Assembly (NCBI RefSeq): GCF_018350175.1 | Contig: NC_058368.1 | Location: forward strand, 108,874,001 to 108,938,000 | DNA from: Felis catus | Taxonomy: Eukaryota | Reading direction: 5' to 3' | Length of the DNA stretch: 64,000 bases | Part shown: positions 5,285-40,374 of the stretch, piece by piece | How positions within the stretch are numbered: the first letter of the stretch is position 1 | Layout of the letters: each line of letters begins with the position of its first letter | Made by a program: the position numbers and the translations under genes | Notes under the pieces: model-generated | Seen by the model: the letters and a program-made list of their open reading frames with translations, nothing else | What the model was told of the DNA's origin: nothing | Databases searched by the model: none

Positions 5285-5650
5285 GCTTCTCGCAAGGACA
5301 TGTTATTTTTTGGTTAAACCTTCAAACAATGGAAATGCCAAATAAATAAATGTGTAAATGAAGTATTGGAAGTTGGATTTACTAAAATATGTTACAAAAC
5401 CACTACAAGGCACTAGAAAGCTTGACTCTACAGCCACTCTGACCCTGTCCTCTGGGTACAGAGTTATCATAGACTAACCAGAAAGATTGCCCGATAAGTA
5501 TGGATTCAGCTCACCTGGGACTTGCTCTAGTCTGCCTTCCCTCTGCTCCAGACCTACACTCTTTTAAATTCTCACCTGAATGGGGCTGGAACACAGAAGG
5601 GTAAAAAAATAATGGGCTTAGGGCCAAGAGGGAAAGGACAAAAAAGGATG
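5285..5650 (-). other. P4HA2-like 3' UTR remnant with degenerate polyA signal (AATAAC)
   Basis: The sequence after the stop (catccttttttgtcctttccc...) and near 5285-5320 (accaaaaaataacatgtcc...gaagcc) resembles the start and end of the P4HA2 3' UTR as I recall it. Confidence 0.6.
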
Positions 5651-5722
5651 TCAGCCAATTTCTGTTGATCCACATGGCCTCAAGAACTCTTGCCCTCGCT
5701 CATGGAAACCACTTCATAGAAA
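5651..5722 (-). pseudogene. P4HA2: P4HA2-like terminal coding exon (V)SMKWF[+1]HERGQEFLRPCGSTEIG*
   Basis: Reverse complement reads TT TCT ATG AAG TGG TTT C CAT GAG CGA GGG CAA GAG TTC TTG AGG CCA TGT GGA TCA ACA GAA ATT GGC TGA, against recalled P4HA2 VSNKWFHERGQEFLRPCGSTEVD*. 1-nt insertion; acceptor lacks AG (ctttctccctgttcacca|TT). Confidence 0.93.
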
Positions 5723-6478
5723 TGGTGAACAGGGAGAAAGTGTATTACAGTCTTGTCATTCAGTAGCCAAAATTGATAATCCCTTCAACCCAGGTTCTGT
5801 TCCGGGCCCTGGAATTAGACTTGAGAAAGTCAAGTCTCACATCCCAAGCTGCTCATGAGCCAGTGAGGAAGACGAATAAAAAGATAATTGTACCTAATTC
5901 TGCCAGTGACACAAGACAGGTGTGTAGAGGTTGCCATGGGAGCAGAGTCAGGAGCATCTCACCAGGTAAGAGAAGAAAAGAAGACCCCAGGGCTGGGACA
6001 TGAAGCTGAACAGCAGTTCTTGAGGAAAAAAGATGGATATATCAGATGGTTCCTATATCAAAGGGTTCCAGAAGGTAGGAACAGGATAAGACAGACATCA
6101 AGGAATGAACCATCCTGGTGTGTATCCAAGCATCTTGATACTAGTGGGATGTGACAAGTGGGAAACAAGACATAGAAGATAAGGATGAGGAGGCCTGTCA
6201 TCCTTATGACAGGAGGCCTGACTATGGGGGCTTGGACATCAACCTCAGGACCTGGGGGCCAGCAGTTCTGATCTGTGTGCTGTGGGTAGCAGAGTAACAG
6301 GGCTGGTGCTAGCACTGCCTGTCACCTAGAGCTGTGCTCCAGTTGCATGTAAACTACAATATCACTCCTCAACATAGACTCTTTCATAATGAATGAAAAA
6401 TAAACTGATTTTACTACACTAATGAAGTCATAGTACTTTCAGACTATAATTTAGTATTTTATTTTTTAAAGTAATACA

Positions 6479-6645
6479 TGGCTCAGTCAGTTGACTCTTG
6501 ATTTCAGCTCAAGTCATGATCTCACGGTTCGTGAAATCGAGCCCTACCTCATGCTCTGTGCTGACAGCACGGAGACTGCTTAGGATTCTTTCTCTCCCTC
6601 TCTCTCTCTGCCCCTCCCCCCATCAAAAATAAATATATGAAAAAA
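6479..6645 (+). mobile_element. Can-SINE (5' clipped)
   Basis: ggctcagtcagtt...ctctgtgctgacagc, CT tract, A tail. Confidence 0.85.
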
Positions 6646-7720
6646 TTACCTAATACTTGTAGTTAGTTGAAAAAAATCAAGCAGTAGTACAAAGGAATAT
6701 CTCACCTTCCCCTTCTACCACCAATCCCACCTACAGAGCACATTCAAACTTTTAACTTGTTTCTTTTGATATTTATCCTCATTTTTCTAAACACAGTACC
6801 AATAATGCTATTTCTTGACTTTCAATTTTAGATCTAATATATTTATGGTCTACTATGGAAGATGGAGATTTGGAATTTTTAACACCACGCCAAAAGTATA
6901 TTTCCCTTTCTCATTCCCCGATAGTTAAATTACAAGTTTTAATTAAAATGGTATTCAATGCTTACATTATTATGTCACATAAATGTGCTCACACCTGAGC
7001 CGTCTAGTAGAGTATACTGACATTTCTTATATAACTTTCCCCCCCTGAAGTCAGCAATTCCCTTTTGCTGAATTTCTGTGAACCTATCATTATTATCCCT
7101 AAAACTCTCTAGGAGGGTATCAACTTGTCTCTTTGCAATCACTTCTTGTCACATCTTGGTTCAAGCCTCTTCATGGCTCACCACAGCTGCTTCCAGAACA
7201 AAGTTCAAGCTTTACCCTCTGCAGTTTGGTCTCAGACTCAAGCCTCATCTTCTGGACCCTGTGTCTTCCCTTATCCAGTGATAAAAGCAGCTGGTTCCCA
7301 CATTTATGATGCCAATTTTAGCTTGGTCCTTGTTCCATGGAGGCCTAGCTTGCCTGGGACACCTCTTTCCCTCTCTGATTCTAGTTCTCCCCCCATCCAC
7401 TGCTCCCTTATCCCTTGCCAGACTGCAAGGATCCACTCTTCTTGACAGTCCTATTCAAAATGTCTTCCCTGGACTCCCACAGTATTCTCAGAATACTCAA
7501 GTGGCACTCAATCAGCTGTCTTGGTACTCTCAACCAACTGAGTGGGTAAAGGGCTGATGGATGAAAGAGGTTTCTAAAATGGTTAGTGTAGAAAATTCTA
7601 CACAAGTAAACTGTCTTGGCTTTATCAGAACTTGGCAACAGTTTAATCCCAGCTCAGAATCTAGGACCAACCACCCAGTCTGAGACCGCCATGCCTAACC
7701 TCACATCTTAGACTACTCAC

Positions 7721-7815
7721 CCCACTTACAGCCCAAAAGCACATGGCAGGCAGAATCTCATTAGGTGGTCACCTTTCCCACTCCTCAGAAGGTTATATCC
7801 AAACAAGGCTGTCTC
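7721..7815 (-). pseudogene. P4HA2: P4HA2-like penultimate exon ETALFGYNLLRSGKGDHLMR[-2]ACHVLLGCKW
   Basis: ttctttccag|GAGACAGCC...TGTAAGTGGG|gtgagt; 95 nt against 97 expected for GTAVFWYNLLRSGEGDYRTRHAACPVLVGCKW+1. The 2-nt deletion falls at the distal His-Ala codons. Confidence 0.93.
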
Positions 7816-8332
7816 CTGGAAAGAAATGGCCTATTAAAACACATTGTAGAGCTGGTTTTGAGGGAACAAATCACAGAGGGTCCCTGAAAGACACAATTTC
7901 TGAATTCCAAAGAAGATGCCATGTGTGATGAGCATGGGATTTGTTTTTATTCAGGGAAAGTCTTTAGCTCCATATACTCACCATCTCAGCTCCACAAAGT
8001 CTCTGGGACCTAACCATGGAGTGCTGCTGAAACTCGAACCTGAAAGAAAACATTCTCACTTGCTTCTGTACAAGGGGACAGAGCTCTGCAAGTTCAGGAA
8101 CACTTCCCAAGTAGCATCTACCCTCACTATTGTGATGAATAATCTGGAAACAAACCTGTCCTTGAAGGAGCTCCTGCTCATTCACCCCAAGTAGGGACCA
8201 CAAGATTGGAGTCTAGGCTGGACATTCCTGAGGACATCACAGTCACAGTCAAGTAAGCCAAGGAATGGGTCAGGGAAATGGACAAGGGCAGAGCCCCGAA
8301 GCAACCAGTGACCTACAAAGAATAAAACTTAC

Positions 8333-8401
8333 CTTCTTGGGCAAAATCATACCACCCATGTCCGGTAAGACAGTGGCACCACCAGCTTCTGCATCACTCA
8401 T
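8333..8401 (-). pseudogene. P4HA2: P4HA2-like exon MSDAEAGGATVLPDMGGMILPKK
   Basis: ttgttttctcag|ATGAGTGAT...CCCAAGAAG|gtaagt; 69 nt, open frame, matches recalled MSDVEAGGATVFPDLGAAIWPKK. Confidence 0.95.
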
Positions 8402-8672
8402 CTGAGAAAACAAAGCACAATGGTTGACCCTTCTCACCTGAGGCTCTCAGACTTTATATGCCACTTGATCCACACAGGAGGCGGTGTGCACCATGCTATT
8501 TTTTTCACCACCACAAATGGCCAGCCCTCAACGAAGATCAAGTTGGGTAAGTACTTTCTGATTATTGACTCTGAGGCCTTTCTCTCCCAAGAAGGGAGAA
8601 GTGTTTCCTAGAACAGTTTGGTTTCTGTTAACACTGTCCCTGTAGGTCCTTCTCCCAGCCCTAATTCCCCTC

Positions 8673-8888
8673 TTTTTTTTTTAAGTTTATTTATTTTTGA
8701 GAGAGAGAGACAGAGAGAGAGAGCATAAGCAGGGAGGGGCAGAGAAAAAGAGGGGGACACAGAATCCAAAGCAGGCTCCTGGCTCTGAGCTGTCATCACA
8801 GAGCCCGATGCAGGGCTTGAACTCACAAATTGAGATCATGAATTCAGCCAAAGTCAGATGTTTAACTGACTGAGCCACCCAGGTACCT
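8673..8888 (-). mobile_element. Can-SINE
   Basis: Antisense SINE; TSD taattcccct / taactcccct. Confidence 0.92.
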
Positions 8889-9859
8889 TTAACTCCCCTA
8901 TCTCTTAAAGCTCTCAACCTGGCAGAGGTGCTCATCCTTTGCTCCAAAAGGATTCATTATCACTTACTATGCAGTAAAACAATCTCCAATCCTGGCACAC
9001 AGTGACAAATAAAAGAGCCACATGCATTCCCTGCCTCATAGTTGAGAGCTCTCAGGTGTGCAGTATGGTTTTCAACTTTGCTTCTGACCCAACATACTCT
9101 GTCTGTCAGAAGGAATGACCACTGCATTCATATACATGGAAGGGGTCTTGAGACTGCCAGAGGAAGACACTGAGGCCAGTGATCTTTACTGGAGTCTTAA
9201 CTTTAAAGGAGTCATTGCCAGAGTCCAAGTGGACAATACTTAAGCCAGTGCTCATTTTACACTTCTCAGCCAGCTAATTCATTATTTTAAAGGTACCCTT
9301 ATCTGGACTGACCACCATTCTGTTCCCATAAACATCAGGATTCACCTAATATCCATGGGTTACAGTACTATCTGGTCCCGAGCTCGTAAAACCCTGTTGC
9401 TTTCCCTTTCTTATGTTGGTGCCTTGGCCCTTCAGCTCACCTCTGCAGGCCTCAAGCAAAGGCCCCTAGCTTTCTTCCAAATGCCTCTTTCTTGGGATCC
9501 GTGAGAAAGGTTCTAGAGACACTACTTGGCCCACTTTACCCTTCCCTGAGGTTTGGCAGCAAGAAATAGCACCAGAAGAATCACTGGGCCACATTTTGTC
9601 TGTAACTGACCCAGGAGAAGCTGATCCAATGCTTCCTTGCCAGGATTACTTTGAAAAGAAAGATTATTTTGGACATATATTAATTCATGTTCTTCTGCCC
9701 CTTGAAATCTAATACTTCTCCCTTTCTCTGCCTCCTTTTGGCCAATCAGCCCAGAGCTCACACAATGAAGCCTATGATGTAGACAGGGTGATAAGCCATC
9801 CAGATGCTTCTTTCTGGATTGAGGTACTTAGTAATTCTTGAAGCTGCTGGGAGTATGGG

Positions 9860-10415
9860 TTGCTGGGGCCCAGAGCTATGTTCCTTTCTGGACATTGCCT
9901 TTATCTGAAGAGAAATGTCTCTGCTACAGTTATCCAACAGCCCTGGGAGGATCTGTATTCAATGTTTGGCCTAGGTACCTTGCCTCAATTTAGGGCAATT
10001 GTAAAGGGCATTCCCAGTTCAAGAGCTCCTTATGGGATTGACTGCAGGTCTAAGTTCCAACTGCATCATAGTTTACCTTATTGTACCATTCAGCCCTGTT
10101 TCTCCCAGTGCCTTACAGGTGTTACTCCAAAATGCAAATCTCCAGTTCAGAGTCTTTACCTAGGTAAACTGACCTAAAATCAGTTGGTACCAAGTGGTCC
10201 TTAGACAGATTTTAAAATGGTGTTTTGGCACTGGATCATCTTTCTGGTGACTAGCAATGAAGACCCCATCAATAATGATAGCTGGAATAGTGATAACTCC
10301 TGGTATGATGTAGTGCTATATTTGTTCACACTTTTATAATGGTAAATTGGGATGGGATATGAGTGGAAAGGAATGCAATGGCTAGTGAAATATCCCAGGT
10401 AATTGCAGGATACAG
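9860..10415 (+). mobile_element. Old ERVL-type LTR 3' end plus start of internal sequence
   Basis: cttacaggtgttactcc...cagagtct...gacctaa followed by agttggtacca, resembling an LTR16/ERVL junction. Confidence 0.4.
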
Positions 10416-10418
10416 GGG

Positions 10419-10730
10419 TGTGGTAGACAAATTAATGTTCCCGCCACATATGTCCCTAGAAATGAGTATGACATACTACATGGCAAATGGGAGTTAAAGT
10501 TGCAGGTGGAATAAATGTTGCTAATAAGATGACTTTAAGATAAGATTATCCCGGATTATCCACATAGGCCCAATGTAATCACAGCAGTTCTTAAAATGTG
10601 GAAGAGGGAAGCAAAAAGTCAGAGTCAGAGGAAGAATTTAAAATATTACACTGCTGGCTTTAAAGGTGGAGAACAATGTCATGAGCTAAGGCATGCAGGA
10701 AGCCTCCAGAAACTGCAAAAAGTAAGAAAC
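10419..10730 (+). mobile_element. MaLR LTR fragment (MLT1D-like)
   Basis: gattatcccggattatcc...cccaatgtaatcaca...ctgctggctttaaaggtgga motifs. Confidence 0.7.
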
Positions 10731-11099
10731 CAATTGCACAACAATGTAAGTATATTTAACACTACTGAACTGTAAACTTTAAAATGGCTAAGATGGTAAA
10801 TTTTATGTTATGCTATGTATCTAACCACAATTTTCAAAAAAGTAGGAAATGAGTCTCCAGAGGGAACAATGAATAAAGACTACAGATTTATCTCAGGAAA
10901 GTCACTGAACAAGAAAACTTAAAATAAGTAACAATACAAACAAACCTGGGGGATTGGGAGAGTCTGATTTGCATACTAACACATTGCTCAATTTTCAACA
11001 AAATTACCAGACATGCAAAGAAACATGAAGATGGCCCATACACATGAAAGAAAACAATCCATAGAAACCATCTCTGAGGACTAGGAAAATACTTAAAAA

Positions 11100-11191
11100 A
11101 ATTGTTTAATGTTTGTTTATTTTTTTAATTTATTTGGGAGGGGGGTAGGGAGAACACAAGCAGGGGAGTGGGGAAAAGAGACACAGAGTGA

Positions 11192-11252
<61 letters not shown>

Positions 11253-11379
11253 AATCCCAAGCAGGCTCTGCACTGTCAACACAGAGTCTCACATGAGGCT
11301 CAAACTCAAACCGTGAGTTCATGACCTGAGCCAAAACCCAGAGTTAGGTGCTTCACTGACTGAACCACCCAGGCAACCC
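11100..11379 (-). mobile_element. Can-SINE with long (GA)n
   Basis: Antisense head ...tgactgaaccacccaggcaaccc. Confidence 0.9.
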
Positions 11380-11586
11380 AGACTAGGAAAAGACTTTAAA
11401 TCAGCTACCTTAAACATGCTCAAAGAACAAAAGGAAACCATCTCTAAAGAACTAAAAGAAACTATGATAATGATGTGTCACCAATAGAGAATATCAATAA
11501 AAAGACAAAACTCTTCAAAAAAATTGAAATCTTGGAGTTAAGTTCAACAACTGAAATTTTAAAAATTAATTAGAAGGTCTCAATAG

Positions 11587-11589
<3 letters not shown>

Positions 11590-11626
<37 letters not shown>
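11590..11626. repeat. (TG)n microsatellite
   Basis: Perfect dinucleotide run. Confidence 0.95.
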
Positions 11627-11630
<4 letters not shown>

Positions 11631-11649
11631 CACACACATACATATATAT

Positions 11650-11846
11650 AATGTTTATTTTTGAGAGAGACAGAGACAGAATGCAAGTGGGTTAGGGACA
11701 GAGTGAGAGGGAGACACAGAATCCGAAGCAGGCTCCAGGCTCTGAGCTTCAGCACAGAGCCCAACGTGGGGCTCGAAGTCACAAACTGTGAGATCATGAC
11801 CTGAGCTGAAGTTGGACACTCAACGACTGAGCCATCCAGGCTCCCC
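11650..11846 (-). mobile_element. Can-SINE
   Basis: Antisense SINE whose tail carries a (TG)n run; TSD-like tctcaatagcat / tctcaacagcat. Confidence 0.9.
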
Positions 11847-12725
11847 TCTCAACAGCATATATAACCTGACAGAAGAAATATCAGCAAACTTGCAATTATC
11901 CAGTCTGAGGAACAGAAAGAAAAAGAATGAAGAAAAATTAAAAGAGCTTCAGAGACCTGTGGGAAACCATCCAGAGTCTTAGAAGGAAAGAAGAAAGAGA
12001 AAGAGACATAAAGAACATGTGAAGAAGTAACAGCCAAAAACTCCCAAAGTTTCATGAAAAACCATAAATTTACAACTCCAAGACAAGAGTGCAAGAGTGT
12101 TCTGGAAGCAGAACACTTAAAGAGGCATAAAATTCCCTATGCTCATTTTGTAATTAATGACTTTTTCCCCTAATTTATCTTGGAGATGACAGGAAATTCA
12201 TTATTGTGACTATTGTCCATTGTACTAAAATAGACTATCCATGTCCGTTTTCCAAACTATTAGCACGCACTGCAACAATCTGAACAAATGGTCACGCTCA
12301 AAATATTCCTGAAAGAAAACTCCTGCCCAAATCAGCTGAGGCCTCACACTGATTAAGAAATGCCACTGTAGTTTTTTTTATTTAAGTCAAATTATAAAAT
12401 GCTTAAAAAAACAAAAAAACACCTCCTTGTCCAAGTCACGGTTTTGTCTTGTTTTTGTTTGTTTTTGTTTGTTTTTGTTTATCAATGATGCTATTGTTAA
12501 AGGAAAAGAGAAGGATCTTCATATGGTACCAACTTCAAATTGAGTAAAGGAGTATGACTGAATGTCAATATTGCTCATCATTTCTTTTCAAAAGGAATGA
12601 GTAAGGTTAATGAGTCAGAAATCTTTCCTCTTTGAAGCAGTCACCAATTATGAGCAAAATTCTCTGAAAAAGTCCCTGACAAAAGTAGAGGTATAAATAT
12701 GCTATAACTTTGGAAATAAGAAATC

Positions 12726-12916
12726 TTTTTTTAATATTTTATTTATTTTTGAGAGAGAGAGAGGGAATGAGTAGGGGAGGAGGAGGGGGGGGGAAAGAGG
12801 ATCTGAAGCAGGCTCTGTGCTGACAGCAGAGAGCCCAACATGGGGTTCAAACCCACAAACCACAAGATCATGACCTGAGCTGAAGTCAGACACTCAATCT
12901 GAGCCACGAGGCACCC
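12726..12916 (-). mobile_element. Can-SINE
   Basis: Antisense SINE; TSD ttggaa(a/t)taagaaat. Confidence 0.9.
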
Positions 12917-14024
12917 TTGGAATTAAGAAATTTTAAGAGCAGTGTGAAAATATCTGAGTATTATTTGGTACAATTTTGGGTAGAGAAAAAAAGGCGATAG
13001 AAAAAATTCATAAATATCTATGAATCCTGAGGTTTTTATCCTCCCTCATAGCTTATTTTAAAAATTAGCTCAAAAATAAAATAATTATTTTAAGAATTAA
13101 AAAATTAGGACTGGAGGAAGATGGCGGTGTAGGAGGATGCTGGGCTCACCGCATCCTGCTGATCACTTAGATTCCACCCACATCTGCCTAAATAACCCAG
13201 AAAACTGCCAGAAGACTAGCAGAATGGACTCTCCAGAGCCAAGCATAGACAAGAGGCCCACAGAAGAGGGTAGGAAGGGCAGAGAGGCAGTGTGTGCTAC
13301 ACGGACTGGCGGGAGGGAGCTGGGGTGGTGGAGGGGCCAGCAAGGCAGAGCCCCCGAGTCTGACTTGCAGAAATGGAGGGGCCAGATGGAGTGAGTGGGG
13401 ACTTAACATCTGGATTGTTATAAGTCAATAGCTCTGCTCTGAGAGTAGGAGGGTTAGAGGACACTGGGAGGGAGAGTTGTTGAGCCCCGAACAACAGAGC
13501 TCAGTTCGGGGGAGAACAAAGGTGCTTGCCAGTGCCATCTCCCTAGCCCATGCCCCAGCCAAAATCCCAAAGGGAACCAGTTCCCCACACGGAACTTGCT
13601 TGCACCGCGCAAACACCCAACGCTGTGCTTCTGCGGATCCATCTCTCTGGCAGCAGGTCTGACTCCCTCCCAGTGCTGCAGTGCCCCTCCTGCAGGGGAC
13701 CACCGAAGGCAAAGTGAGCTGAGCCTGCCCCTTCCACCCCTGTGCACCTTGTGGATCCACCCCGGCTAATACAACAAATCCCATAGAAGCAGCACCACAA
13801 GCCTGGCAGTGTTCAAGTAGCCCAGACAGGGGCCACACCACTCCACAGTGAGTCCTGCCCTGGGAGAGGGGAAGATAAGGTACACACCAGTCTGACTGTG
13901 GCCCCAGCGGCAGGCTGGGGGCAGACATCAGGTCTGACTGCGGCCCCACCCACCAACGCAAGTTACTTGGGACAGCACAGGGGAAGAGCCCTGCAGTTCC
14001 GCACCACTCCAGGGACTATCCAAA

Positions 14025-14922
14025 ATGATGAAACAGAAGAATTCTCCTCAAAAGAAACTCCAGGAAGTAGCGACAGCTAACGAATTAATCAAAAAACGAT
14101 TTAAGCAATATAACAGAACATGAATTTAAAATAATAGTCATAAGATTAATCGCTGGGCTTGAAAAAAGTATAAAGGACAGCAGAGAATCTATTGCTACAG
14201 AGATCAAGGGACTAAGAAACAGTCAGGAGGAGCTAAAAAATGCTATAAATGAGGTGCAAAATAAAATGGAGGTGACCACAGCTTGGATTGAAGAGGCAGA
14301 GGAGAGAATAGGTGAATTAGAAGATAAAATTATGGAAAAAGAGGAAGCTGAGAAAAAGAGAGATAAAAAAAATCCAGGAGTATGAGGGGAGAATTAGAGA
14401 ACTAAGTGATGTGATGAAATGCAATAATATCCGTATAATAGGGATTCCAGAGGAGGAAGAGAGAGAGAGAAAGGGGCTGAATGTGTACTTGAAGAAATCA
14501 TAGCTGAGAACTTCCCTGATCTGGGGAAAGAAAAAGGCATTGAAATCCAAGAGGCACAGAGAACTCCCTTCGGACCTAACTTGAATCGATCTTCTACACA
14601 ACATACCATAGTGACACGGGCAAAATACAAGGATAAAGAGAAAATTCTCAAAACAGCTAGGGATAAACACACTCTAACATATAAAGGGAGACCGATAAGA
14701 CTAGTGACAGATCTATCTACTATAACTTGGCAGGCCAGAAAGGAATGGCAGGAAATCTTCAATGTGATGAACAGAAAAAATATGCAGCCAACATTCCTTT
14801 ATCCAGCAAGTCTGTCACTTAGAATAGAAGGACAGATAAAGGTCTTCCCAAACAAACAAAAACTGAAGGAATTCATCACCACTAAACCACCACTACAAGA
14901 GATCCTAAGGGGGATCCTGTGA
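14025..14922 (+). pseudogene. L1 ORF1p, frameshifted
   Basis: MMKQKNSPQKKLQE... start; frameshifts in A-runs near 14091 and 14365; C-terminus ...LKEFITTKPPLQEILRGIL* in ORF 14581..14922. Confidence 0.9.
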
Positions 14923-14951
14923 GATAAAGTACCAGAGACATCACTACAAGC

Positions 14952-17900
14952 ATGAAACCTACAGACATCATGATGACTCTAAACCCGTATCTTTCTATAA
15001 TAACACTGAATGTAAATGGACTAAATGCTCCAACCAAAAGACATAGGGTATCTGAATGGATAAAAAAACAAGACCCATCTATTTGCTGTCTACAAGAGAC
15101 TCATTTTAGACCTGAGGACAGCTTCAGATTGAAAGTGAGGGGATGGAGAACTATTTATCATGCTACTGGAAGTCAAAAGAAAGCTGGAGTAGCCATACTT
15201 ATATCAGACAAACTAGACTTTAAATTAAAGGCTGTAACAAGAGATGAAGAAGGGCATTATATAATAATAACAGGGTCTATCCATCAGGAAGAGCTAACAA
15301 TTATAAATGTCTATGCACCGAATACGGGAGCCTCCAAATATATAAAACAATTACTCACAAACATAAGCAATCTTATTGATAAGAATGTGGTAATTGCAGG
15401 GGACTTTAATACCCCGCTTACAGAAATGGATAGATCATCTAGACACATGGTCAATAAAGAAACAAGGGCCCTGAATGATACATTGGATCAGATGGACTTG
15501 ACAGATACTTTTAGAACTCTGCATCCCAAAACAACAGAATATACTTTCTTCTCGAGTGCACATGGAACATTCTCCAAGATAGATCACATACTGGGTCCAA
15601 AATAGCCCTCAACCAGAATTGAGATAATACCGTGCATGCTTTCAGACCACAATGCTATGAAGCTTGAAATCAACCACAGGAAAAAGTCTGCAAAACCTCC
15701 AAAAGCATGGAGGTTAAAGAACACCCTACTAAAGAATGAATGGGTCAACCAGGCAATTAGAGAAGAAATTAAAAAACATATGGAAACAAATGAAAATGAA
15801 AATACAACAATCCAAACGCTTTGGGATGCAGCGAAGGCAGTCCTGGGAGGAAAATACATTGCAATCCAGGCCTATCTCAAGAAACAAGAAAAATCCCCAA
15901 TACAAAATCTAACAGCACACCTAAAGGAAACAGAAGCAGAACAGCAAAGACACCCCAAACCCAGCAGAAGAAGAGAAATAATAAAGATCAGACCAGAAAT
16001 AAACAATATAGAATCTAAAAAAACTGTAGAGCAGATCAATGAAACCAAGAGTTGGTTTTTTCAAAAAAATAAACAAAATTGATAAACTTCTAGCCAGGCT
16101 TCTCAAAAAGAAAAGGGAGAGGACCCAAATAGATAAAGTCATGAGTGAAAATGGAATTATTACAACCAATCCCTCAGAAATACAAGCAATTATCAGGGAA
16201 TACTAGGAATAATTATATTCCAACAAACTGGACAACCTGGAAGAAATGGACAAATGCCTAAACACTTCCAAACCCACATACTTCCAAAACTCAAGCAGGA
16301 AGAAATAGAAAACTCGAATAGACCATAACCAGTGGAGAAATTGAATCAGTTATCAAAAACCTCCCAACAAATAAGAGTCCAGGACCAGATGGCTTCCCTG
16401 GGGAAGTCTACCAGACATTTTAAGCAGAGATAATACCTATCCTTCTCAAGCTGTTCCAAAAAATAGAAAGAGAAGGAAAACTTTCAGATTCATTCTATAA
16501 AGCCAGCATTACTTTGATTACTAAACCAGACAGAGACCCAGTAAAAAAAGAGAACTACAGGCCAATATCCCTGATGAATATGGATGCAAAAATTCTCAAC
16601 AAGATACTAGCAAATCGAATTCAACAGCATATAAAAAGAATTATTCACCATGATCAAGTGGGATTCATTCCTGGGCTACAGGGCTGGTTCAACATTCACA
16701 AATCAATCAATGTGATACATCACATTAATAAAAGAAAAAATAAGAACCATATGATCCTGTCAACTGATGCAGAAAAAGCATTTGACAAAATTCAGCACCA
16801 TTTCTTAATAAAAACCCTCGAGAAAGTCGGGACAGAAGGAACATACTTAAACATCATAAAAGCCATTTATGAAAAGTCCACAGCTAATATCATCCTCAAT
16901 GGGGAAAAACTGAGAGCTTTCTCCCTGAGATCAGGAACACGACAGGGATGTCCACTCTCACTGCTGTTGTTTAACATAGTGTTGGAAGTTCTAGCATCAG
17001 CAGTCAAACAAAAGGAAATCAAAGGCATCAAAATTGGTAAAGATGAAGTCAAGCTTTCACTTTTTGCAGATGACATGAAAATGTATGTACATGACATGAC
17101 ATGTATCACTTTTTGCAGATACATGGAAAATCTGATAGACTCCACCAAGAGTCTGCTAGAACTGACACATGAATTCAGCAAAGTTGCAGGATACGAAATC
17201 AATGTACAGAAATCAGTTGCATTCTTATACACTAATAATGAAGCAACAGAAAGACAAATAAAGAAACTGATCCCAATCACAATGGAACCAAGAAGCATAA
17301 AATACCTAGGAATAAACCTAACCAAAGATGTAAAAGATCTGTATGCTGAAAACTATAGAAAGCCGATGAAGGAAATTGAAGAAGATACAAAGAAATGGAA
17401 CATTCCATGCTCATGGATTGCAAGAATAAATATTGTTAAAACGTCAATACTACCCAAAGCTATCTACACATTCAATGCAATCCCAATCAAAATTGCACCA
17501 GCATTCTTCTTGAAGCTAGAACAAGCAATCCTAAAATCTGCATGGAACCACAAAAGACCCCGAATAGCTAAAGTAATTTTGAAGAAGACCAAAGCGGGAG
17601 GCATCACAATCCCAGACTTTAGCCTCTACTACAAAGCTGTAATCATCAAGACAGCATGGTATTGGCACAAAAACAGACACATAGACCAATGGAATAGAAT
17701 AGAAACCCTAGAATTAGACCTACAAAAGTATGGTCAACTAATCTTTGACAAAGCAGGAAAGAATATCCAATGGGCAAGAGACAGTGTCTTTAACAAATGG
17801 TGCTGGGAGAACTGGACAGCAACATGCAGAAGCATGAAACTAGACTACTTTCTTACACCACTCACAAAAACTCAAAATGGATAAAGGACCTGAATGTAAG

Positions 17901-18825
17901 ACAGGATACCATCCAAACCCTAGAGGAAAAAGCAGGAAAAAACCTCTCTGACCTCAGCCGCAGCAATTTCTTACTTGACACATCCCCAAAGGCAAGGGAA
18001 TTAAAAACAAAAATGAACTACTGGGACCTCATGAAGATAAAAAGCTTCTGCACTGCAAAGGAAACAATCAACAAAACTAAAAGACAACCAACGGAATGGG
18101 AAAAGATATTTGCAAATGATGTATCGGACAAAGGGCTACTATCCAAAATCTATTAAGAGCTCACCAAACTCCACACCCGAAAAACAAATAATCCAGTGAA
18201 GAAATGGGCAGAAAACATGAATAGACACTTCTCTAAAGAAGACATCCAAATGGCTAACAGGCACATGAAAAGATGGTTAATGTCGCTCCTCATCAGGGAA
18301 ATACAAATCAAAACCACACTGAGATAACACATTCATGCCAGTCAGAGTGGCTAAAATGAACAAATCAGGAGACTAGACTAGAGATGCTGGCGAGGATGTG
18401 GTGAAACAGGAACCCTCTTGCACTATTGGTGGGAATGCAAACTAGTGGAGCCACTCTGGAAAACAGTGTGGAGGTTCCTCAAAAAATTAAAAATAGATCT
18501 ACCCTATGACCCAGGAATGGCACTGCTAGGAATTTACCCAAGGGATACGGGAGTGCTGATACCTAGGGGCACTTGTACCCCAATGTTTATAGCAGCACTC
18601 TCAACAATAGCCAAATTATGGAAAGAGCCTAAATGTCCATCAACTGATGAATGGATAAAGAAATTGTGGTTTATGTACACAATGGAATACTACTTGGCAA
18701 TGAGAAAGAATGAACTATGGCCTTTTGTAGCAACATGGATGGAACTGGAGAGTGTTATGCTAAGTGAAATAAGTCATACAGAGAAGGCCAGGTACCATAT
18801 GTTTTCACTCTTATGTGGATCCTGA
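14952..18825 (+). pseudogene. L1 ORF2p (endonuclease/reverse transcriptase), broken by stops and frameshifts
   Basis: ORF pieces 14952..15605 (LNVNGLN, CCLQETH, GDFNTPL), 15636..16082, 16514..17884 ([14 protein letters not shown]), 17797..18156 and 18418..18825 (HYWWEC). Confidence 0.95.
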
Positions 18826-19260
18826 GAAACTTAACAGAAGACCATGGGGGCAGGGAAGGAAAAAGAAAAAGGGTTAGAGAGGGAGGGAGCCAAAACATGA
18901 GACTCTTAAAAACTGAGAACTGAGGGTTGATGGGGGGTGGGAGGGAGCAGAGTGTGGGTGATGGGCATTGAGGAAGGCACTGTTGGAACGAGCACTGGGT
19001 GTCATATGGAAACCAATTTGACAATAAATTTCATATTAAAAAAAAAAGAATTAAAAAATTAGTCTTGGTCCAGAGAGAAAATCACACCTGATTGGCAAAA
19101 CAAATGGTTCTAGATCTTTACTCTTCAAGCGGCTGACAACCTAAGGAGTAATATAATAAAGAAGTGCTGTGTAATATGAAAAGTCCCCCAAATAATTCTG
19201 TGACTCTTCCCTTTCCCTCTTTCTCCTTCTACTTCTAGTAATTGATAGTAGCTCCTATAC

Positions 19261-19966
19261 TGAAAGAGCGGACCTATGCCAGCCGACTCCATCTTGTTCT
19301 GAGTCCTCCACCTTGAGTGACTATGTCCCTGACATGGCCCCTTTCCGGGAAAATCGCAGAAACCTCAGACCATGCCTCCTCCCCTTGAGTAACCTCCCGC
19401 TCACCCGTTCAAACTTCCTGATCAAAACATGCCTGGTGAGGGGCACCTGGGTGGCTCAGTCGGTTAAGCATCCGACTTCAGCTTAGGTCACCATCTCATG
19501 GTCGTGAGTTCTAGCCCTGCGTCAGGCTCTGGGCTGATGGCTCAGAGCCTGGAGCCTGCTTCTGATTCTGTGTCTTCCTCTCTCTCTGCCCCTCCCCCCG
19601 TTCATGCCCTGTCTCTCTGTGTCTCAAAAATAAATAAATGTTAAAAAAAATTTTTTTTTTAATTAAAAAAAAAAAACACCCGGCGACCTGCGTAATGGGA
19701 CTCTGACCCTTCCCCAGCCAATCAGCCGAGGCCATGACCCTTCCCCAGCCAATCGGCTGAGGCCACAGCCATTACCTCACCAACTGCCCCTAGACCCCTA
19801 TAAAACCTTTGTGCTTTTGAAACTCGCTCTCTCTCTCCGGTATCTCACCGCTGCGTTGGTGCAGATAGGGGATTGAGCTCAAGCTAGCTCGAATAAAGGC
19901 TCTTTGCTTTTGCATTGGACTCGGCTCCCTGGTGGTCTTTGGGGATCACGAATTCTGGGCATAACA
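19261..19966 (+). mobile_element. Solo ERV1-type LTR with an internal SINE
   Basis: TG...CA termini (tgaaaga...ataaca); 4-bp TSD atac (19257-19260, 19967-19970); repeated CCAAT unit 19705-19766; TATAAAA ~19799; AATAAA ~19892. Confidence 0.9.
19440..19672 (+). mobile_element. Can-SINE inserted in solo LTR
   Basis: ggggcacctgggtggctcagtcggttaagc head, CT tract, A/T tail. Confidence 0.93.
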
Positions 19967-20060
19967 ATACCAGGTTAATCATTAGAATTTTCTAGTGTGT
20001 TTTTAAAAATATAAATTCCTTGGTGTGCCTACAGGGCAATCCAGTATTGATCATACTTAT

Positions 20061-20126
20061 ATAACTCATGAATGTGGCCACTTGATTCCCTGTCTCATCA
20101 GTCTCCAAAGGCTCAGTGTCAAATCC
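20061..20126 (-). pseudogene. P4HA2: P4HA2-like 66-nt exon GFDTEPLETDETGNQVATFMSY, donor mutated to AT
   Basis: aatttcacag|GGATTTGAC...ATGAGTTAT|ataagt; matches recalled ...GTGNRVATFLNY exon in length (22 codons) and in its C-terminal half. Confidence 0.85.
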
Positions 20127-20511
20127 CTGTGAAATTTATGTCAAAGTGAATATGCAGGTCTTAGACTTAACTAGTTAAGCACAAAAAACAGTTGCTTTCC
20201 CATCCATTATAGTTAAGGATGTGATGTAAGAAAGAGAAGCTCATCACAGCCAAATGGAGGTCACCTCACCCCTTCAGGATGGAGATGATCAGAGAGGCAG
20301 TTGAGAAGAGAACCTAGGCAAGAAGGGCCAATAGAGGAACTAAGTGTTACATTCACAGAACAAACCACCAATTCATACATTTGTCCATGATGGAGACAGA
20401 AAACTCAAAGCAGGAAATGGATCAAAAAAGATGACTAAAAAGGAGTATATGCCACCCTGAGAAAACATTTTATCCTAGGGCTGGTCAAGTCAGGAAAAGT
20501 TCAGTTAGAAT

Positions 20512-20814
20512 TGTTACGGAACCTGGTCTGGATCACCCAGCGGAAGAACCAAGAGGCACTCAGATATCTTGGAAGGCAGGAGGTTTATTTCACCCTGGTG
20601 GGCTCAGAGGAGATGGCTCTCCAGAGGTCTGAGTTCTGAGCGCAAGCATGGGGGACAATTTATAGTAGTTACTTCCGCATTAGTAGTAATTTGGTGCATG
20701 TGGCAAGCGGGGTAGGAAGAAGAACGTTGAAGGGAGTCTTGGGGTGGGGACTGGAATTACCCTCTCAGTCCTGTCGGCCATCTTACAACATAATTATGTT
20801 AAGATTCCCTATCA
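20512..20814 (-). mobile_element. Short solo ERV LTR (303 bp)
   Basis: TG...CA termini; 4-bp TSD gaat (20508-20511, 20815-20818); minus-strand TATAAA ~20660 and AATAAA ~20586. Confidence 0.8.
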
Positions 20815-21529
20815 GAATCACAAAGGGAGCTTATCAATAGGACAAGGCTGGCTTTTGCTTTCAACGTCTATGTGTTTTCCTCTGTGAAAGCTGCTCCTGG
20901 CAGCACCAAGAATATGGTTTCCCGTATTCCCATAACCAGTGGGTCCATTCTGACTACAGAGAGAGTTGCCCTCAGACTATATTACAGGGACATCGTCTCA
21001 TGAAGGTACAGGTTTAAAGAAACAGTCTTAGCTTAGAGCTAGCTCTTCCAGGAAGATTTCTCTGAATGTTCAGGTTGTATGCCTATTCACTGGGACTCAG
21101 GACCACTGCACACATACGTCCTTTAATGCTTTTCCAATTATTTAGAAAGTAGCTGTTCATATGCATGTCTGTCAAAAAAAAAAAAAAAACACTATGGTCT
21201 CTCTATGAGAACTGGTACTATCTTCTCTGCTTTCCTAGCCCTAATTCCCAGGACAATAACCAGCACATGAAATCTGCTAAAGAACATTTGTTGTCTAGTT
21301 TCCTAATTTTGTCCCAAAGGACAAAATGTGTATCTTTTCTTTCTTTTTGGTTCAGCCACACCAGGGAACTGCGCTGGGCTAAAGTATTGGAGCTAACAGT
21401 AATAGACTCCAGTGCTCTTCATGTCAACAGAGAAGTGAGTGCCTCTCACCTGCAGAGAGGCAGAGGAACCTAGCACAAGAGGGGCCACAGGTGGGAGCAA
21501 AGGATTCTGTGTGGTTCTCTCTTACCCTC

Positions 21530-24246
21530 TTTTTTTTTAATGGTTTCAATTTTTCTTTTTATTATAACATGAGCTAAATTTAAGGAACTAATCTTTTGAG
21601 TTTATTTCCCAGAGTTGTCAGAATATACAAGTGACAATGTAACTCATGAAAATATACTGAAAAGTATAAGAGCTGATGTAAAATGGTAATCAAGGTTCCA
21701 GGTATCAAGGAATTAGAGTAAGTGAAGAATGAAATCAGTCAGGCTACTGCCTGAGAGAAGCAGGATGCTCTGGTTTAGCAAGGTGCCATCAAGGAATAGG
21801 AAAACATCAAATGTGTGGTGGTAAGTCATAGCATGAGAAAGATTTCCACTGGGCAACTCTCCACCATTTTTACTTTTGTAAATGAGTTATTCTTCATTTA
21901 ATAACAGGATTCTCTTAAGCTAACATTTCAAAATTAAAATCATTTGTATAGGTAAGGTAAATCACAGTATAATGATTAGGAAAATTTTCTTCTTTTTTAA
22001 ATCAAAAACCCTCCAAATGGTCAGGGATTGATGGAGTTGGGATGACAAATGTACATTTCAGACTGTCATCACCAATGAAAAAATAAAACATTTTTATGGA
22101 CTTAAAACTGTCAATGCACTTAGATTTGGCACTTTTGCCTATATTAATTTGGCACTTTTGCCTATATTAATTGGCCTATATTAATACAAGGCCAATAGAA
22201 ATTGGCCATGTAATGAAGTCATTTTAGTGAACTACCAACATGTAAATATAAGAAAAATAATTTCTTGGTCAATTTCAGTGAAACTTTAAAAAAGATTGTC
22301 TCTAGAGAACATTTGTTGAGAACAATGCTTTTTCAGTCACATTCTGATACTCAAATCCACTTTATAATCCAATTATAGATTCATCTTTTAATTGCACTAA
22401 TTTTTAAAAAGCTGTGAGATTTCCATTTCTTCAGGAGATATTTTCATCACTGTGTTCTTCAATTCCACAGGTTAAGCTTCCTTCATTATTATTAAGAACT
22501 TCATACATGTTAGAGAGATTGCCATTCACTGCTTTTTTGTCTTTCAAAAAGACAAAGGGAGACTACCTAGAATAAAGCTGATATCTTTAGAGGCATGCAA
22601 CAAGAATATTCCCACAATGATTGTAAAAGTACCATCAAAGTACCATCGACATCATCAATAGGCATATCTTGCCACTTCTTAAAAAGACCAGCTAAACATG
22701 GGGCACCGGGGTGGCTCAGTTGGTTAAACGTCTGACTTTGGCTCAGGTCATGATTTTGTGGTTTGTAGGTTTGACCCCCATGTCAGGTTCTGTGCTGACA
22801 GCTCAGAGCCTGAAGCCTGCTTCAGGTTCTGTGTTTCTCTCTATCTCTTCCCCTCCCCCACTCATGAGCGTGTGTGTGCACTCTCTCTCTCTCTTTCTCT
22901 CTCAAAAAAAAAAAAAAAAAAAAAAAAAGAATAGCTGAACCAGTTCAAACTGAGGTTGTAAAAAATATGTAATATACTGAAGTGAGAATGAAAGTATTGA
23001 ATATACCCAGGGCCCTGCCCAGGTAATTAATCTGTGTGCTCTCATAGACTATAAGGCTCAGCAGCAGAATCCTGGCCAGATGTCACAACACAGACTTTCC
23101 AGCAAACATCTCTTTGATATCAAGGCCCAAGCCCTTAACACAGGACAACAAAAACACTCTGATTACAGAGCAGATTTCTATGCACACAAGAATGTTTTTC
23201 TGTCTATGGCAAGGTCCCACCTCAAAGATTAATATCAATGACACAATGACCACAAGGGTTGCAAAGACTACAAAACCTGGATCTCCCAGCTTATGAGACA
23301 TTTCGTTTGAAGTCTTGATCTCCTCTTCTCTAGAGCATGAATGACCATAACTATAGATTCTAGAATACTTAGCAAACAACCAATTTTCCCATGAAAATTA
23401 TGTCTTTCATTTAGAGTGGGTGTATGAAGAAAGGATGCACTTACTGGGATGCTGAGAGCTCCTAATGAAGTCACAAGGGTGGCTGGTGCAAAGGCATATG
23501 CAGCAAAGTTGGCCACCTCACCTGCTCCCATTGATAGCAATCCAGCCCACCACAATGATTCTTTAAGATATGCATGGCCACCTTGACCTGCTCTCTTGGA
23601 GCCTTTCCTGGCAACTTGCAGAAGACTTTGTTTTTTTTGTTGTTGTTGGGTTTTTTTGTTTGTTTGTTTTTTCAAAATGAAACTCTTGCCAATGAAAATG
23701 CTGGAGCTCATAGCCAATCCCAGAACAGTGTAAAAGTTGTATTTTCCATGCCCCTGGATCACTGCATTCGTTACTGAAAAAGTTCTTATGAGTCACAGTG
23801 ATCACAAAACAGAGAAATGACTGGCGCTGGAGGCAGGATTATGCAGTCTTCAAATATGTAAGTTTAATATGGTCTCTCTTATGAAAAAAGGCGGAAAGAG
23901 GTTTTAGAGATGACTATTCACTCCCATTTTCTTATAAATGTTACTCTTTACTCTCATTTAAAGTTTTAAACCCAGGCAGAGTAGCTCGAGCCCCAGTTGG
24001 AGGCTGGCCATGTGGCTTCCCCTCCACTATCTGGCCCTGATCACCTCCACTCACATGCCCACACAGGCTGCACAGGCCACCCCCTCTTGAGCTCCCGCAG
24101 CCAGTGCCTTCCTTGCCATACAGGAGGAGGTGAGAGCATCTAGGGCTGCAGCCATGCGCACCTGGCCTCCTCCATGGGGGTGCACCGAGGGGAACCTGCC
24201 CCAGATGACATGCGACCCCTAACCCCTGTCTCAGGAACCAAGGGCA
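21530..24246 (-). pseudogene. NIPA2: NIPA2 (magnesium transporter) processed pseudogene; CDS-equivalent 23762-22404
   Basis: Intronless. ORFs 23268..23762 and 23083..23379 give [58 protein letters not shown] and [27 protein letters not shown]; ends NGNLTAF* at 22404-22406. Start codon is GTG, with frameshifts and a SINE in the CDS. AATAAA and an A tail near 21530-21563; GC-rich 5' UTR to ~24246; degenerate TSD gttctct(c/a)t(t/c)ac. Confidence 0.93.
22700..22928 (+). mobile_element. Can-SINE inserted in the NIPA2 retrocopy CDS
   Basis: Canonical head and long A tail; degenerate TSD aaaaagaccagctaaac / aaaaagaatagctgaac. Confidence 0.93.
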
Positions 24247-24490
24247 GTTCTCTATCACTTTCCATCCCAAGAAGTCATCTCAATTCCAGGTGCTGAAGGA
24301 AACATCATCACGTTAGGAGAAGGGGGTAAAGGCTTTTTTTCTCTTCTGGGGTGTTATTTTAAAACAGTCCCTAAAGATTTATCTTTAATAATTTAGAGGC
24401 CCCATGAGAAGAAGACAAACCTTGCATATGAGCTCTGACCTTCTCCTGCCACTCTAAACACAGCTCAGAGGAGTAACATTTTGCCCTTAC

Positions 24491-24544
24491 CAAAAAATAA
24501 TTCAAATGAGGTTCAAAGAATCCTCCAATACCATAGTCACCAAC
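24491..24544 (-). pseudogene. P4HA2: P4HA2-like exon VGDYGIGGFFEPHLNYFL (HxD motif exon, Asp replaced by Asn)
   Basis: ttttttactgccag|GTTGGTGAC...TATTTTTTG|gtaagg; 54 nt; homologous to VANYGVGGQYEPHFDFSR; visible inside ORF 24371..24562. Confidence 0.9.
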
Positions 24545-24639
24545 CTGGCAGTAAAAAAACAAACAGGGTTAACTAGGTGGACAACCCTCAAGGCAGTCTA
24601 GGAACTCTGTATTCCCAAGCCTGCACCTAAGTGAAGATA

Positions 24640-24800
24640 CAATAAGCAGTTTATCCGGCACCTGTATCTAGATGAGGAAATTAAGGATCAAAGAGGATAT
24701 GGAACTTATTCAAGGTCAGAAAGCTAGAAAGTAGCAAAGCTGTGATTCACACCCAGGCTTTCTAGTTCCTTAGCTCATGCTCTTAAACCCTCAGCCATTT
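24640..24800 (+). mobile_element. MIR fragment
   Basis: agatgaggaaattaagg...caaggtcagaaagctagaaagtagcaaagctgtgattcacacccagg core. Confidence 0.65.
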
Positions 24801-24972
24801 GTGGACCCAGAGGAAAAAGGATGAGGCAACCAACAATCAGACTGGGTAGGTTTCTGTGGGAAGGCGCATAGAAGTGGGGCTCAGGACATTTCAAGGACAG
24901 TGTCCCCAAAAGTGAGTATGGGAAGCTTCAGACTAGAGGTAACCATGAATCAAATGCAAGATGGAAAATGGT

Positions 24973-25157
24973 GGGATGCCTGGGTGGCTCAGTCAGTTGA
25001 GTATCTGACTCCTGATTTCGGCTTCATGATTTCATGGTTGTGAGACTGAGTCTAGCATCAGGCTCCACGTGCTGAACATGAAACCTTCTTGGGATTCTTT
25101 CTCTCCCTTTTATCTCTGCCCCTCCCCACATCTCTCTCAAAATAAATAAATAAAAAA
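24973..25157 (+). mobile_element. Can-SINE
   Basis: gggatgcctgggtggctcagtcagtt head; TSD-like atggaaaatgg / atgggaaatgg. Confidence 0.88.
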
Positions 25158-25226
25158 TTTTATGGGAAATGGCAAGAACAGGAGATTAGCAGAGAGATTA
25201 CCTACTCAGATGGACTCAAGTCATAC

Positions 25227-25325
25227 CTGGAAAAATTCTGCTGTTTCTTCTAACAACCCAGTGATCAGCTAACTCCTTTGATTTACTTGGACAATTACAG
25301 GCCCTTTGTCTTCTGTCAGAAATAA
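25227..25325 (-). pseudogene. P4HA2: P4HA2-like exon LFLTEDKGPVIVQVNQRS*LITGLLEETAEFFQ
   Basis: ttccctgttcag|TTATTT...TTTTTCCAG|gtatga; 99 nt; aligns to SWLEEDDDPVVARVNRRMQHITGLTVKTAELLQ with an in-frame TAG at the Gln position. Confidence 0.88.
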
Positions 25326-25696
25326 CTGAACAGGGAAAATCGGGCAGAAGAGGAGGGCCTGAGGAAGAGAGAAAAGGGGACCAATGTGAGTCAGAAGAAG
25401 CAGATGGGGTAGAAAATGAGGGGAGACATGGGGGTTCAGAGGTCATTCCTTCTGCAAACGCCACAACTGTCATTTTTGGCTGAGAAATGCCATATGAGAA
25501 TCTTTAGAATCCTTACAATGTCAGCATTCACAGGGTCCTTTCCAACCTCTCATCTGATGACAATACTGAGATGATAATGTGAAAGTAAACTGCCCAAGTT
25601 TATAAAGCCAGTAAGTGGCAGAGCTGGGACTATAATTCAAGGTTTCAAATTTTTAGTCCTGTACCTTTTATGATGGTAATTAATAAGACCTCCCAA

Positions 25697-27840: not shown

Positions 27841-28170
27841 ATAACTTATCCTTCATTACCCTTTTAATGCCCATAGGATCACTAGTGATGGCCCTTTTTT
27901 GATTTCTGATATTAGTAATTCGTATTTTCTTTTTTATTGATTGCCTGGCTAGAGGCTTATCAATTTTATTCATCTTTCCAAATAATCAGCTTGTGGCTTT
28001 GTTGATTTTCTCTATTGTTTTCCTGTTCAATTTCATTGATGTCTGCTCTAATTTTTATTATTATTTTTCTTAACTTCTGACTTAGTTTGCTCTTATTTCT
28101 TTCCAGTTTCCTAGGATAGAAGCTGAGATTCTTGCTTTTAGATTTTTCTTCTCTTCTAATATAAATATAC

Positions 28171-28222
<52 letters not shown>

Positions 28223-30485: not shown

Positions 30486-31084
30486 AGGAAAACCGGGGGA
30501 ATTCAAGATGTTCACAGACAGCATTAATGATCCAAACATAGACTCAGAACTCTAGAATGCCACACACATGTACAGTACTGTGTATAATACCAAGAAAGAC
30601 CTAAGTAGGCCCTAATTTCTCATGTCCCACGGTCCTTGAGTCTCTGAACAGGCCAGATGTGAAAGTTAAGGCAGAATTGTAAACTGCCTGCCAGAATATT
30701 GAAGGTGTGCCCTGACACCCACACAAGTCCATCAGAAAAGGCTGAGAGACTTTTGGTTCCAGATATCTAAGGAAATACTGGTCTAACAATTAGCTGACCT
30801 GCAAACTAACCAAGCAGAGATGTAAGAGGCCACACAAGAAAATAAATACATACAATATAGAATGACACTGTGAAAGTCACTCACAAACAGCACAAACAAC
30901 AACAAACGCTGGGAATTGGATGAGCGGGAATCTAATTTCCAGAGTTCCCATACTACAAGATTTTAAATTTCCAATTTCACACCCTAAAAATACAAAAAAT
31001 GCAAAGAAACATGAACATATGGTTCTTACACAGAAGAAAAGCAGTCTGCAAGCCCATAACTGGACTTAGTTAATAAGAATTTTT

Positions 31085-31132
31085 AAGAAATATTTATTTA
31101 TTTTTGAGAGAGAGAGAGACAGAGACAGAGAG

Positions 31133-31187
<55 letters not shown>

Positions 31188-31352
31188 GAGAATGAGTGGG
31201 GGAGTGGCAGAGACAGAGGGACCAAATCCAAAGCGACTCCAGGCTCTTAGCTTTCAGCACAGAGCCCAACACAGGGCTCAAATCCATGAACCACAAGATC
31301 ATGACATGGGCCAAAGTTGGATGCTCAACCGACTGAGCCACCCAGGTATCCC
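31085..31352 (-). mobile_element. Can-SINE with (GA)n
   Basis: Antisense head ...gactgagccacccaggtatccc. Confidence 0.9.
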
Positions 31353-31432
31353 AATTAATAAGACTTTAAGCCAGCTATTATAGTAAATATTTTCAAAGAA
31401 TTACAGGCAACCATGTCTGAAATGCTAAAAGG

Positions 31433-31478
<46 letters not shown>
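31433..31478. repeat. (CA)n microsatellite
   Basis: Perfect dinucleotide run. Confidence 0.95.
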
Positions 31479-31480
<2 letters not shown>

Positions 31481-31652
31481 AATGATACCTTACCAAAGAA
31501 AGAATATCAATAAAAAGAGTAAAAGTATAAAAAAAGAACCAATAGCAACTCTGGTTGAAAAATAATGAGTTGAAAATAATGAGTTGAAAAATAAAAGAAC
31601 TGCAATATAAAATTCACTAGCAGATTTGAACTGGCATAAAAAAGAATCACTA

Positions 31653-38919: not shown

Positions 38920-39015
38920 AAGATAAATAGGTAGATAGATAGATAGATAGATAGATAGATCTATCTATATATATGTATATATACGTATATGTATATGTAT
39001 ATCTATAGCTATATT
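38920..39015. repeat. (GATA)n / (TA)-rich simple repeat
   Basis: agatagatag run followed by tatatg units inside the L1 3' region. Confidence 0.85.

Positions 39016-40342: not shown

Positions 40343-40374
<32 letters not shown>

Follow-up and report, generated by a model that had tools for sequence, protein, structure and literature searches.

A 64,000-nucleotide stretch of the domestic cat genome (Felis catus, NC_058368.1, positions 108,874,001–108,938,000; hereafter the window) carries on its minus strand the remains of a gene related to P4HA2, the gene for the alpha(II) subunit of collagen prolyl 4-hydroxylase (C-P4H). The exons belong to a dead orthologue of a P4HA2 paralogue and are not a private copy of cat P4HA2. 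In full, the remains are very probably the decayed orthologue of a fourth C-P4H-type alpha-subunit gene, which arose as a tandem duplicate of P4HA2 on the placental stem and is dead in the cat. The current count of alpha subunits is three (PMC13202288), and the paralogue is likely to be a fourth, previously overlooked sister gene of P4HA2 of early placental origin. Literature searches, outside subscription journals and bioRxiv supplements, returned no description of it, only automatic 'alpha-2-like' names, and the supplements of PMC9810328 (11 files) and PMC10195156 (one file) held no P4HA match.

All six minus-strand exons proposed in the initial annotation can be read in the window at their positions and in the right order (Table 1). 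Five of them have the catalytic domain of human P4HA2 (PDB 7ZSC_A) as best match, with collinear and abutting alignments to residues 113-144, 143-160, 185-207, 209-228 and the C-terminal tail (E values from 1.4e-6 to 0.1). The 66-nt exon had no match in this comparison with 7ZSC; it fills the 22-residue gap between its neighbours and is recognised by the paralogue profile. The initial annotation took the exons to match P4HA2 specifically, but a distinct paralogue matches better, with 136 of 197 residues shared with the copy of the mole Talpa versus 111 of 195 with lynx P4HA2. A tblastn search of full-length proteins against the window, a check that the initial annotation had suggested, located a seventh exon, which encodes part of the N-terminal dimerisation domain and was matched at E 4e-5 by lynx P4HA2, at 1e-19 by a yak paralogue tail and at 1e-21 by a horse paralogue tail. 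Under our own segmentation of the paralogue/P4HA2 coding region into 14 segments, whose boundaries are partly assumed from the human gene, per-exon profiles gave 24.6-76.1 bits for seven segments and at most 8.7 bits for the other seven, and the reversed window gave at most 5.1 bits. A protein search with the last exon alone returned no match, and none of the six single exons matched a Pfam family.

Table 1. Remains of the paralogue and associated features in the cat window
Feature	Position (nt)	Strand	Evidence and state
Third coding segment, N-terminal dimerisation domain	45212..45378 (167 nt)	-	AG/GT intact; 18-nt internal duplication, two in-frame stops; 76.1 bits
Catalytic-domain exon with in-frame TAG	25227..25325 (99 nt)	-	7ZSC 113-144, E 0.008; 40.5 bits; 58% to elephant-seal paralogue exon; probably one base short of expected phase
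HxD iron-motif exon, here HxN	24491..24544	-	7ZSC 143-160; 84% to Talpa and Condylura paralogues vs 53% to P4HA2
betaII-betaIII substrate-loop exon, acidic (net -5), donor AT	20061..20126 (66 nt)	-	61% over 23 aa to Tamandua paralogue; 24.6 bits
Open exon, splice sites intact	8333..8401 (69 nt)	-	7ZSC 185-207, E 9e-5
Exon with 2-nt deletion at distal iron histidine	7721..7815 (95 nt)	-	Two tblastn pieces in different frames; 2-oxoglutarate lysine codon retained, out of frame
Last coding exon and stop; acceptor AG lost, one base extra	5651..5722	-	7ZSC tail, E 1.4e-6
Remnant 3' UTR, AATAAC at 5307	5285..5650	-	Partial off-frame match to mammal contig down to 5575
Interval expected to hold segments 4-8 (rest of N domain, whole peptide-binding domain, start of catalytic domain)	25326..45211	.	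Mostly repeats; 64% of bases occur again elsewhere in the window
Old LINE-like stretch, about 770 bp into the intron after exon 45212-45378	44312..44443	-	Best match in the window to the part of the horse model's tail that is not P4HA (53% over 47 aa, E 5e-12); next match 3.5e-4

The introns lie at the positions of the parent gene, with the same junctions as P4HA2 at the seven surviving exons, and the exons carry disabling lesions, as in an unprocessed (intron-containing) pseudogene. This arrangement of collinear exons agrees with the proposal of a DNA-level duplication rather than retrocopying. Past the stop codon, AATAAC is the sole AATAAN/ATTAAA hexamer within 400 nt, and the match of the untranslated region is a single off-frame translation of a mammal contig aligned beyond the stop (38% over 132 positions, E 7e-10), the contig being either P4HA2 or the paralogue. 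A search of representative proteins gave 109 matches, mostly translated SINE-like stretches with no full-length P4HA among them, and yielded exon-plus-intron pieces that were used afterwards. A paralogue piece of this exon-plus-intron kind (ENA mammal contig P0005) agrees with the window's in-frame intron flanks at 18 of 26 flank residues.

When 197 residues are scored, the window shows 61-69% identity to six paralogues versus 54-57% to 13 placental P4HA2 proteins. At 48 diagnostic columns, in which no residue is common to both groups, it sides with the paralogue at 33, with P4HA2 at three and with neither at 12. In a tree of 21 rows (LG+G4, omitting eight P4HA2 rows, Condylura and the seal fragment, and built without P4HA1 or P4HA3), the window falls inside the paralogue clade (support 100/100), together with the laurasiatherian copies (90/85) and apart from the xenarthran ones (94/91); a quick tree of 31 rows under a mixture model had the same shape. 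If part of P4HA2 had been duplicated recently in the cat lineage and the copy had decayed without ever being functional, this could explain the recovery of only seven of 14 coding segments, the many lesions and the repeat-rich surroundings. The approximately unbiased (AU) test, however, rejects the grouping of the window with lynx P4HA2 (p 1.2e-5), and orthologous exons are found in yak, horse and seal, with whole-looking genes in six species. Because of the shared derived residues we regard such a duplicate as already refuted, unless the mole and xenarthran proteins are mis-assembled alike, and its probability as very small. A separate Felis catus P4HA2 protein exists and is identical to the lynx protein at 504 of 505 residues.

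The paralogue clade joins placental P4HA2 (98/95) with marsupial P4HA2 outside, in line with the mammalian-era duplication suggested at the outset, and the AU test rejects a therian P4HA2 clade that excludes the paralogue, that is, a pre-therian origin (p 0.011). On this evidence the tandem, DNA-level duplication of P4HA2 would fall on the placental stem, once marsupials had branched off but while xenarthrans and laurasiatherians still shared an ancestor; a burst of divergence would have come first and purifying selection afterwards. The paralogue could instead be much older, pre-therian or an ohnologue of the vertebrate genome doublings, and have been pulled towards placental P4HA2 by gene conversion or tree error. 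Its identity of about 61% to P4HA2 of the same species is near the 65% between P4HA1 and P4HA2 (PMC13202288), its stem is a long one (0.6), and gene conversion can occur between neighbouring genes. Against such an age stand the two tree results just given and the fact that the two marsupial matches, which had been considered as possible paralogues, were rejected as ordinary P4HA2. The in-frame intron flanks also lie nearer to placental-type P4HA2 (3-7 of up to 14 residues, 16 rows) than to others (1-3 of 14, 11 rows), a weak and selection-biased comparison. We consider the older origin unlikely and retain the placental-stem duplication.

The position of the paralogue is indicated by P4HA2 gene models of other mammals. 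Those of yak (MXQ83786.1), horse (A0A3Q2GYW8 and A0A3Q2HN96) and elephant seal (KAF3821523.1) depart from P4HA2 ahead of the final exon and run on through paralogue exons, so that the second copy must lie downstream of P4HA2 on the same strand. The window exons match the tails of these fused models far better than P4HA2, with 40 of 49 residues shared with yak and 71% identity to horse. The copies of Talpa, Tamandua and Choloepus are on records of the same length as that of P4HA2, and the accession numbers are neighbours in Talpa and Tamandua. We infer that in this cat genome, too, the paralogue lies just downstream of P4HA2 in tandem. In yak, the tail keeps an open frame for 214 residues and covers most of the peptide-binding domain, which suggests that the ruminant copy may have died late or be alive.

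The cat copy is an ordinary dead gene. The lesions listed in the initial annotation were borne out in the sequence, namely the TAG in the 99-nt exon, the AT donor after the 66-nt exon, the frame change in the 95-nt exon, CA in place of AG before the last exon and a second frame change within it. Its verdict that the gene is dead here likewise stands, on the stops, frameshifts and lost splice sites and on the seven of 14 coding segments not found within the window. Lesions affect six of the seven exons, and the reading frame is broken over the N-terminal, peptide-binding and catalytic domains. The His-X-Asp...His iron triad is also broken, with D432 replaced by N and H501 lost in the 2-nt deletion. 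Two of the three iron ligands are gone from this copy, and five middle coding exons are missing, very probably through deletion. At 73 columns invariant in 29 whole proteins the window departs 11 times, versus 0-4 times for each whole paralogue when left out, and under neutral simulation this corresponds to some 0.08 substitutions per site, with values of 0.04-0.14 not rejected at the 2.5% level. With a carnivoran rate that we assume to be near 2e-9 per site and year, the loss would date to roughly 40 million years ago (20-70), a rough estimate that puts it tens of millions of years back in the cat lineage.

Words sampled from 5200-9000 are contained at 0.91-0.95 in 14 of 24 listed sequencing runs, which places the stretch in other samples (one of which may be the source) and does not thereby confirm each lesion; RNA runs with 0.14-0.58 of the sampled words are no evidence of expression. 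The alternative that the lesions are assembly errors, and that the window holds either the sole P4HA2 of this animal or a whole paralogue, could draw on the lesions being read from the assembled sequence, but it has next to no probability given the distinct cat P4HA2, the lesions in nearly every surviving exon together with five absent exons, and these sequencing runs. The defining feature of a unitary pseudogene, a whole orthologue in other lineages, is present in the form of predicted proteins. It is more apt to speak of a long-lived gene that was lost in the cat than of a duplicate that was disabled, because the paralogue has been conserved since the xenarthran/laurasiatherian split.

The suggestion that the gene may be intact in other lineages proved fruitful, with whole-looking predicted proteins in three talpids (Talpa, Galemys and Condylura) and three xenarthrans (Dasypus, Choloepus and Tamandua). 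They came from a protein search with the yak tail that passed 13 out of 866 candidates, namely the query itself, the horse model, the two ordinary marsupial P4HA2 proteins and nine paralogue rows from the six species. Since this search required shared five-residue words and lengths of 399-1271, the lack of any bat, primate, rodent, afrotherian or carnivoran full-length copy among its 13 passing rows is weak evidence of absence. Full-length isoforms of 534-541 aa occur in four species. The three-domain architecture (PF08336, PF23558 and PF13640, precomputed) is found on rows of five of the six species; the listed Tamandua row is an isoform without PF13640, and the full Tamandua isoform aligns end to end. 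The automatic name 'prolyl 4-hydroxylase subunit alpha-2-like' is attached to Talpa XP_037365281.1, Choloepus XP_037656841.1 and Tamandua XP_076994487.1, all unreviewed predictions. The paralogue is named plain 'subunit alpha-2' in Dasypus (XP_023444948.2), Condylura (XP_012583199.1) and Galemys (KAG8507806.1), so that P4HA2 orthologue sets for these three species may hold the wrong gene.

The whole copies evolve faster than P4HA2 (mole-sloth identity 72% vs 92%), and the pattern of constraint follows that of the parent: 171 of 256 P4HA2-invariant columns are invariant in the paralogue versus 123 of 243 other columns (p 2.7e-4). With residues numbered as in PMC9676403, the iron triad H430, D432 and H501 and the 2-oxoglutarate residues Y421, T467 and K511 are complete in five of six copies, the exception being Choloepus with H430N. 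C294, C311, C504 and C529, which form the C294-C504 bridge and supply the PDI-bonding C311 and C529, are present in all six. The paralogue resembles P4HA2 (PDB 7ZSC; PMC9676403) in length, in its three Pfam domains and in its catalytic residues and PDI-bonding cysteines. It differs in its overall identity of about 61%, in its patchy survival, in the replacement of the conserved HPVNA stretch of the N domain and in its rewritten hairpin and betaII-betaIII loops. Judged from their sequences, the whole copies most likely form an alpha2-beta2 enzyme with PDI in the endoplasmic reticulum (ER) and hydroxylate proline.

It is also conceivable that the orthology is right and that the whole-looking copies are not working hydroxylases, being either in slow decay or a non-catalytic partner or damper of P4HA2 and PDI. 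This would suit the substitution at H430 in the sloth and Y427F in the talpids, the collagen-pocket residues lost in seven of seven copies, the faster evolution and the apparent repeated loss in other orders. The complete iron and 2-oxoglutarate ligands of five of the six copies, the four structural cysteines of all six, the constraint that tracks that of P4HA2 and the open frames of 534-541 aa speak against it, and we hold it to be rather unlikely. In the Choloepus protein (XP_037656841.1), a 541-aa frame is open, yet the first iron histidine has become N and Y230 has become C; this copy could possibly be a pseudo-enzyme, an early stage of decay or a base error.

The surfaces that face the substrate have changed. 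The hairpin loop has a net charge of +2 in 23 of 23 P4HA2 proteins and is rewritten in the paralogue (net -1 to +2). All six paralogues, and the window, have a betaII-betaIII loop with a net negative charge; in P4HA2 the charge is net positive in 20 of 22 proteins. Docking in bioRxiv 10.1101/2023.06.28.546674 indicates that these two loops determine X-position specificity and that the tunnel of isoenzyme II is strongly positive. In the peptide-binding groove, Y196 and R223 are replaced in seven of seven copies, including yak, and Y158 in six of seven; N227 is retained in all seven. The paralogues accordingly lack an intact P8 pocket (Y158, D192, Y193, Y196 and R223), which is described as conserved in isoenzymes I and II and in which tyrosine-to-alanine changes are reported to raise the Km for (PPG)10 (PMC12433258). 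Two AlphaFold2 models of the Talpa protein, with mean pLDDT of 42.6 and 46.4 and values below 50 over the catalytic domain, were too poor for a structure search.

Retained catalytic ligands, lost pocket residues and an acidic loop together point to a changed choice of substrate. The whole copies would have a weakened collagen-binding groove and an acidic active-site tunnel, and we infer that they serve as catalytically active prolyl hydroxylase subunits of the ER that bind long collagen chains weakly. There is roughly an even chance that they favour basic X-Pro-Gly sites or a non-collagen substrate. P4HA1 (alpha(I)) offers a parallel for the first of these: models give its tunnel a slightly negative charge, and only P4HA1 hydroxylated (KPG)5 (bioRxiv 10.1101/2023.06.28.546674); the paralogue is predicted to lean the same way. 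Unlike the paralogue, P4HA1, compared here by description, has a complete high-affinity peptide-binding groove (PMC12433258). P4HA3 (alpha(III)), also set apart by description, is 35-37% identical to P4HA1 and P4HA2 (PMC13202288), and the paralogue is a young P4HA2 offshoot. More tentatively, and with somewhat less than even confidence, early placentals may have had a fourth ER alpha subunit with its own substrate, catalytically whole, with the groove dismantled, the tunnel acidic and basic X-Pro-Gly sites or a non-collagen secreted protein as its target. Such a subunit would persist only in moles and xenarthrans and would have disappeared repeatedly, including in humans.

Several points weigh against the account as a whole. 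Every whole copy is a predicted protein, the models for Galemys and Condylura (488 and 431 aa) are incomplete, and among the active-site changes H430N in the sloth is joined by Y427F in the three talpids and the window. The lesions are read from the assembled sequence, the true P4HA2 lies outside the window and the tandem position in the cat genome is deduced from other species. The window fills only 37% of the tree columns, and the fetched set lacks the ordinary armadillo P4HA2. The long paralogue stem could distort the placement, and with trees lacking P4HA1 and P4HA3 this makes the age likely, not certain.

Coding segments 1-2 were not found in the window by the profiles and are absent or beyond it. 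Segments 4-8 were not found in their expected interval, where the best profile scores were 0.2-5.8 bits and none was on the right strand and in place. At about 30480 within this interval, two old LINE-like pieces in opposite orientation join, by eye a candidate deletion breakpoint. An island at 31990-32330, considered as a possible exon, was ruled out by the lack of a profile match; it resembles what we take to be an old LINE 5' end. The LINE-like stretch at 44312-44443, presumably a LINE and named without a repeat library, is spliced to the same exon in the horse model too and probably goes back to an insertion in a shared ancestor. An almost complete LINE-1-like element at 13110-19040, which we likewise assume without a repeat library to be LINE-1, runs antisense to the gene and makes up half of the intron that separates the 66-nt and 69-nt exons. 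LTR-like stretches at 19260-19960, with a 31-bp tandem repeat and a SINE-like insert, and at 20550-20820 lie to either side of the 66-nt exon, within some 100 and 430 bp of it. The stretches 51400-52500 and 63650-64000 have no second copy within the window and resemble what is presumably decayed retroviral internal sequence. Metagenome scans for mammalian DNA of the gene gave 528 pattern matches, none confirmed, and two loci, both distant P4HA genes. These two contigs (L001 and L002) are probably invertebrate, and L002 carries a compact multi-exon gene.

The proposed fourth subunit is about as far from P4HA2 as P4HA1 is, yet on this account it was born from P4HA2 within mammals. Wrong or fused P4HA2 annotations are flagged here in at least six species. 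In the human genome, the CSF2-P4HA2 interval is presumably the downstream side of P4HA2, and a remnant of the paralogue is predicted there. This interval is handled as intergenic and carries an immune-disease association signal (PMC4327416). With the catalytic core fixed and the presumed specificity loops and groove changed, the paralogue amounts to a natural experiment on substrate choice, and its expression and assay are feasible with existing peptide panels. If early placentals did have such an enzyme with its own substrate, the pattern of its loss would point to that substrate and to a trait given up by most placentals.

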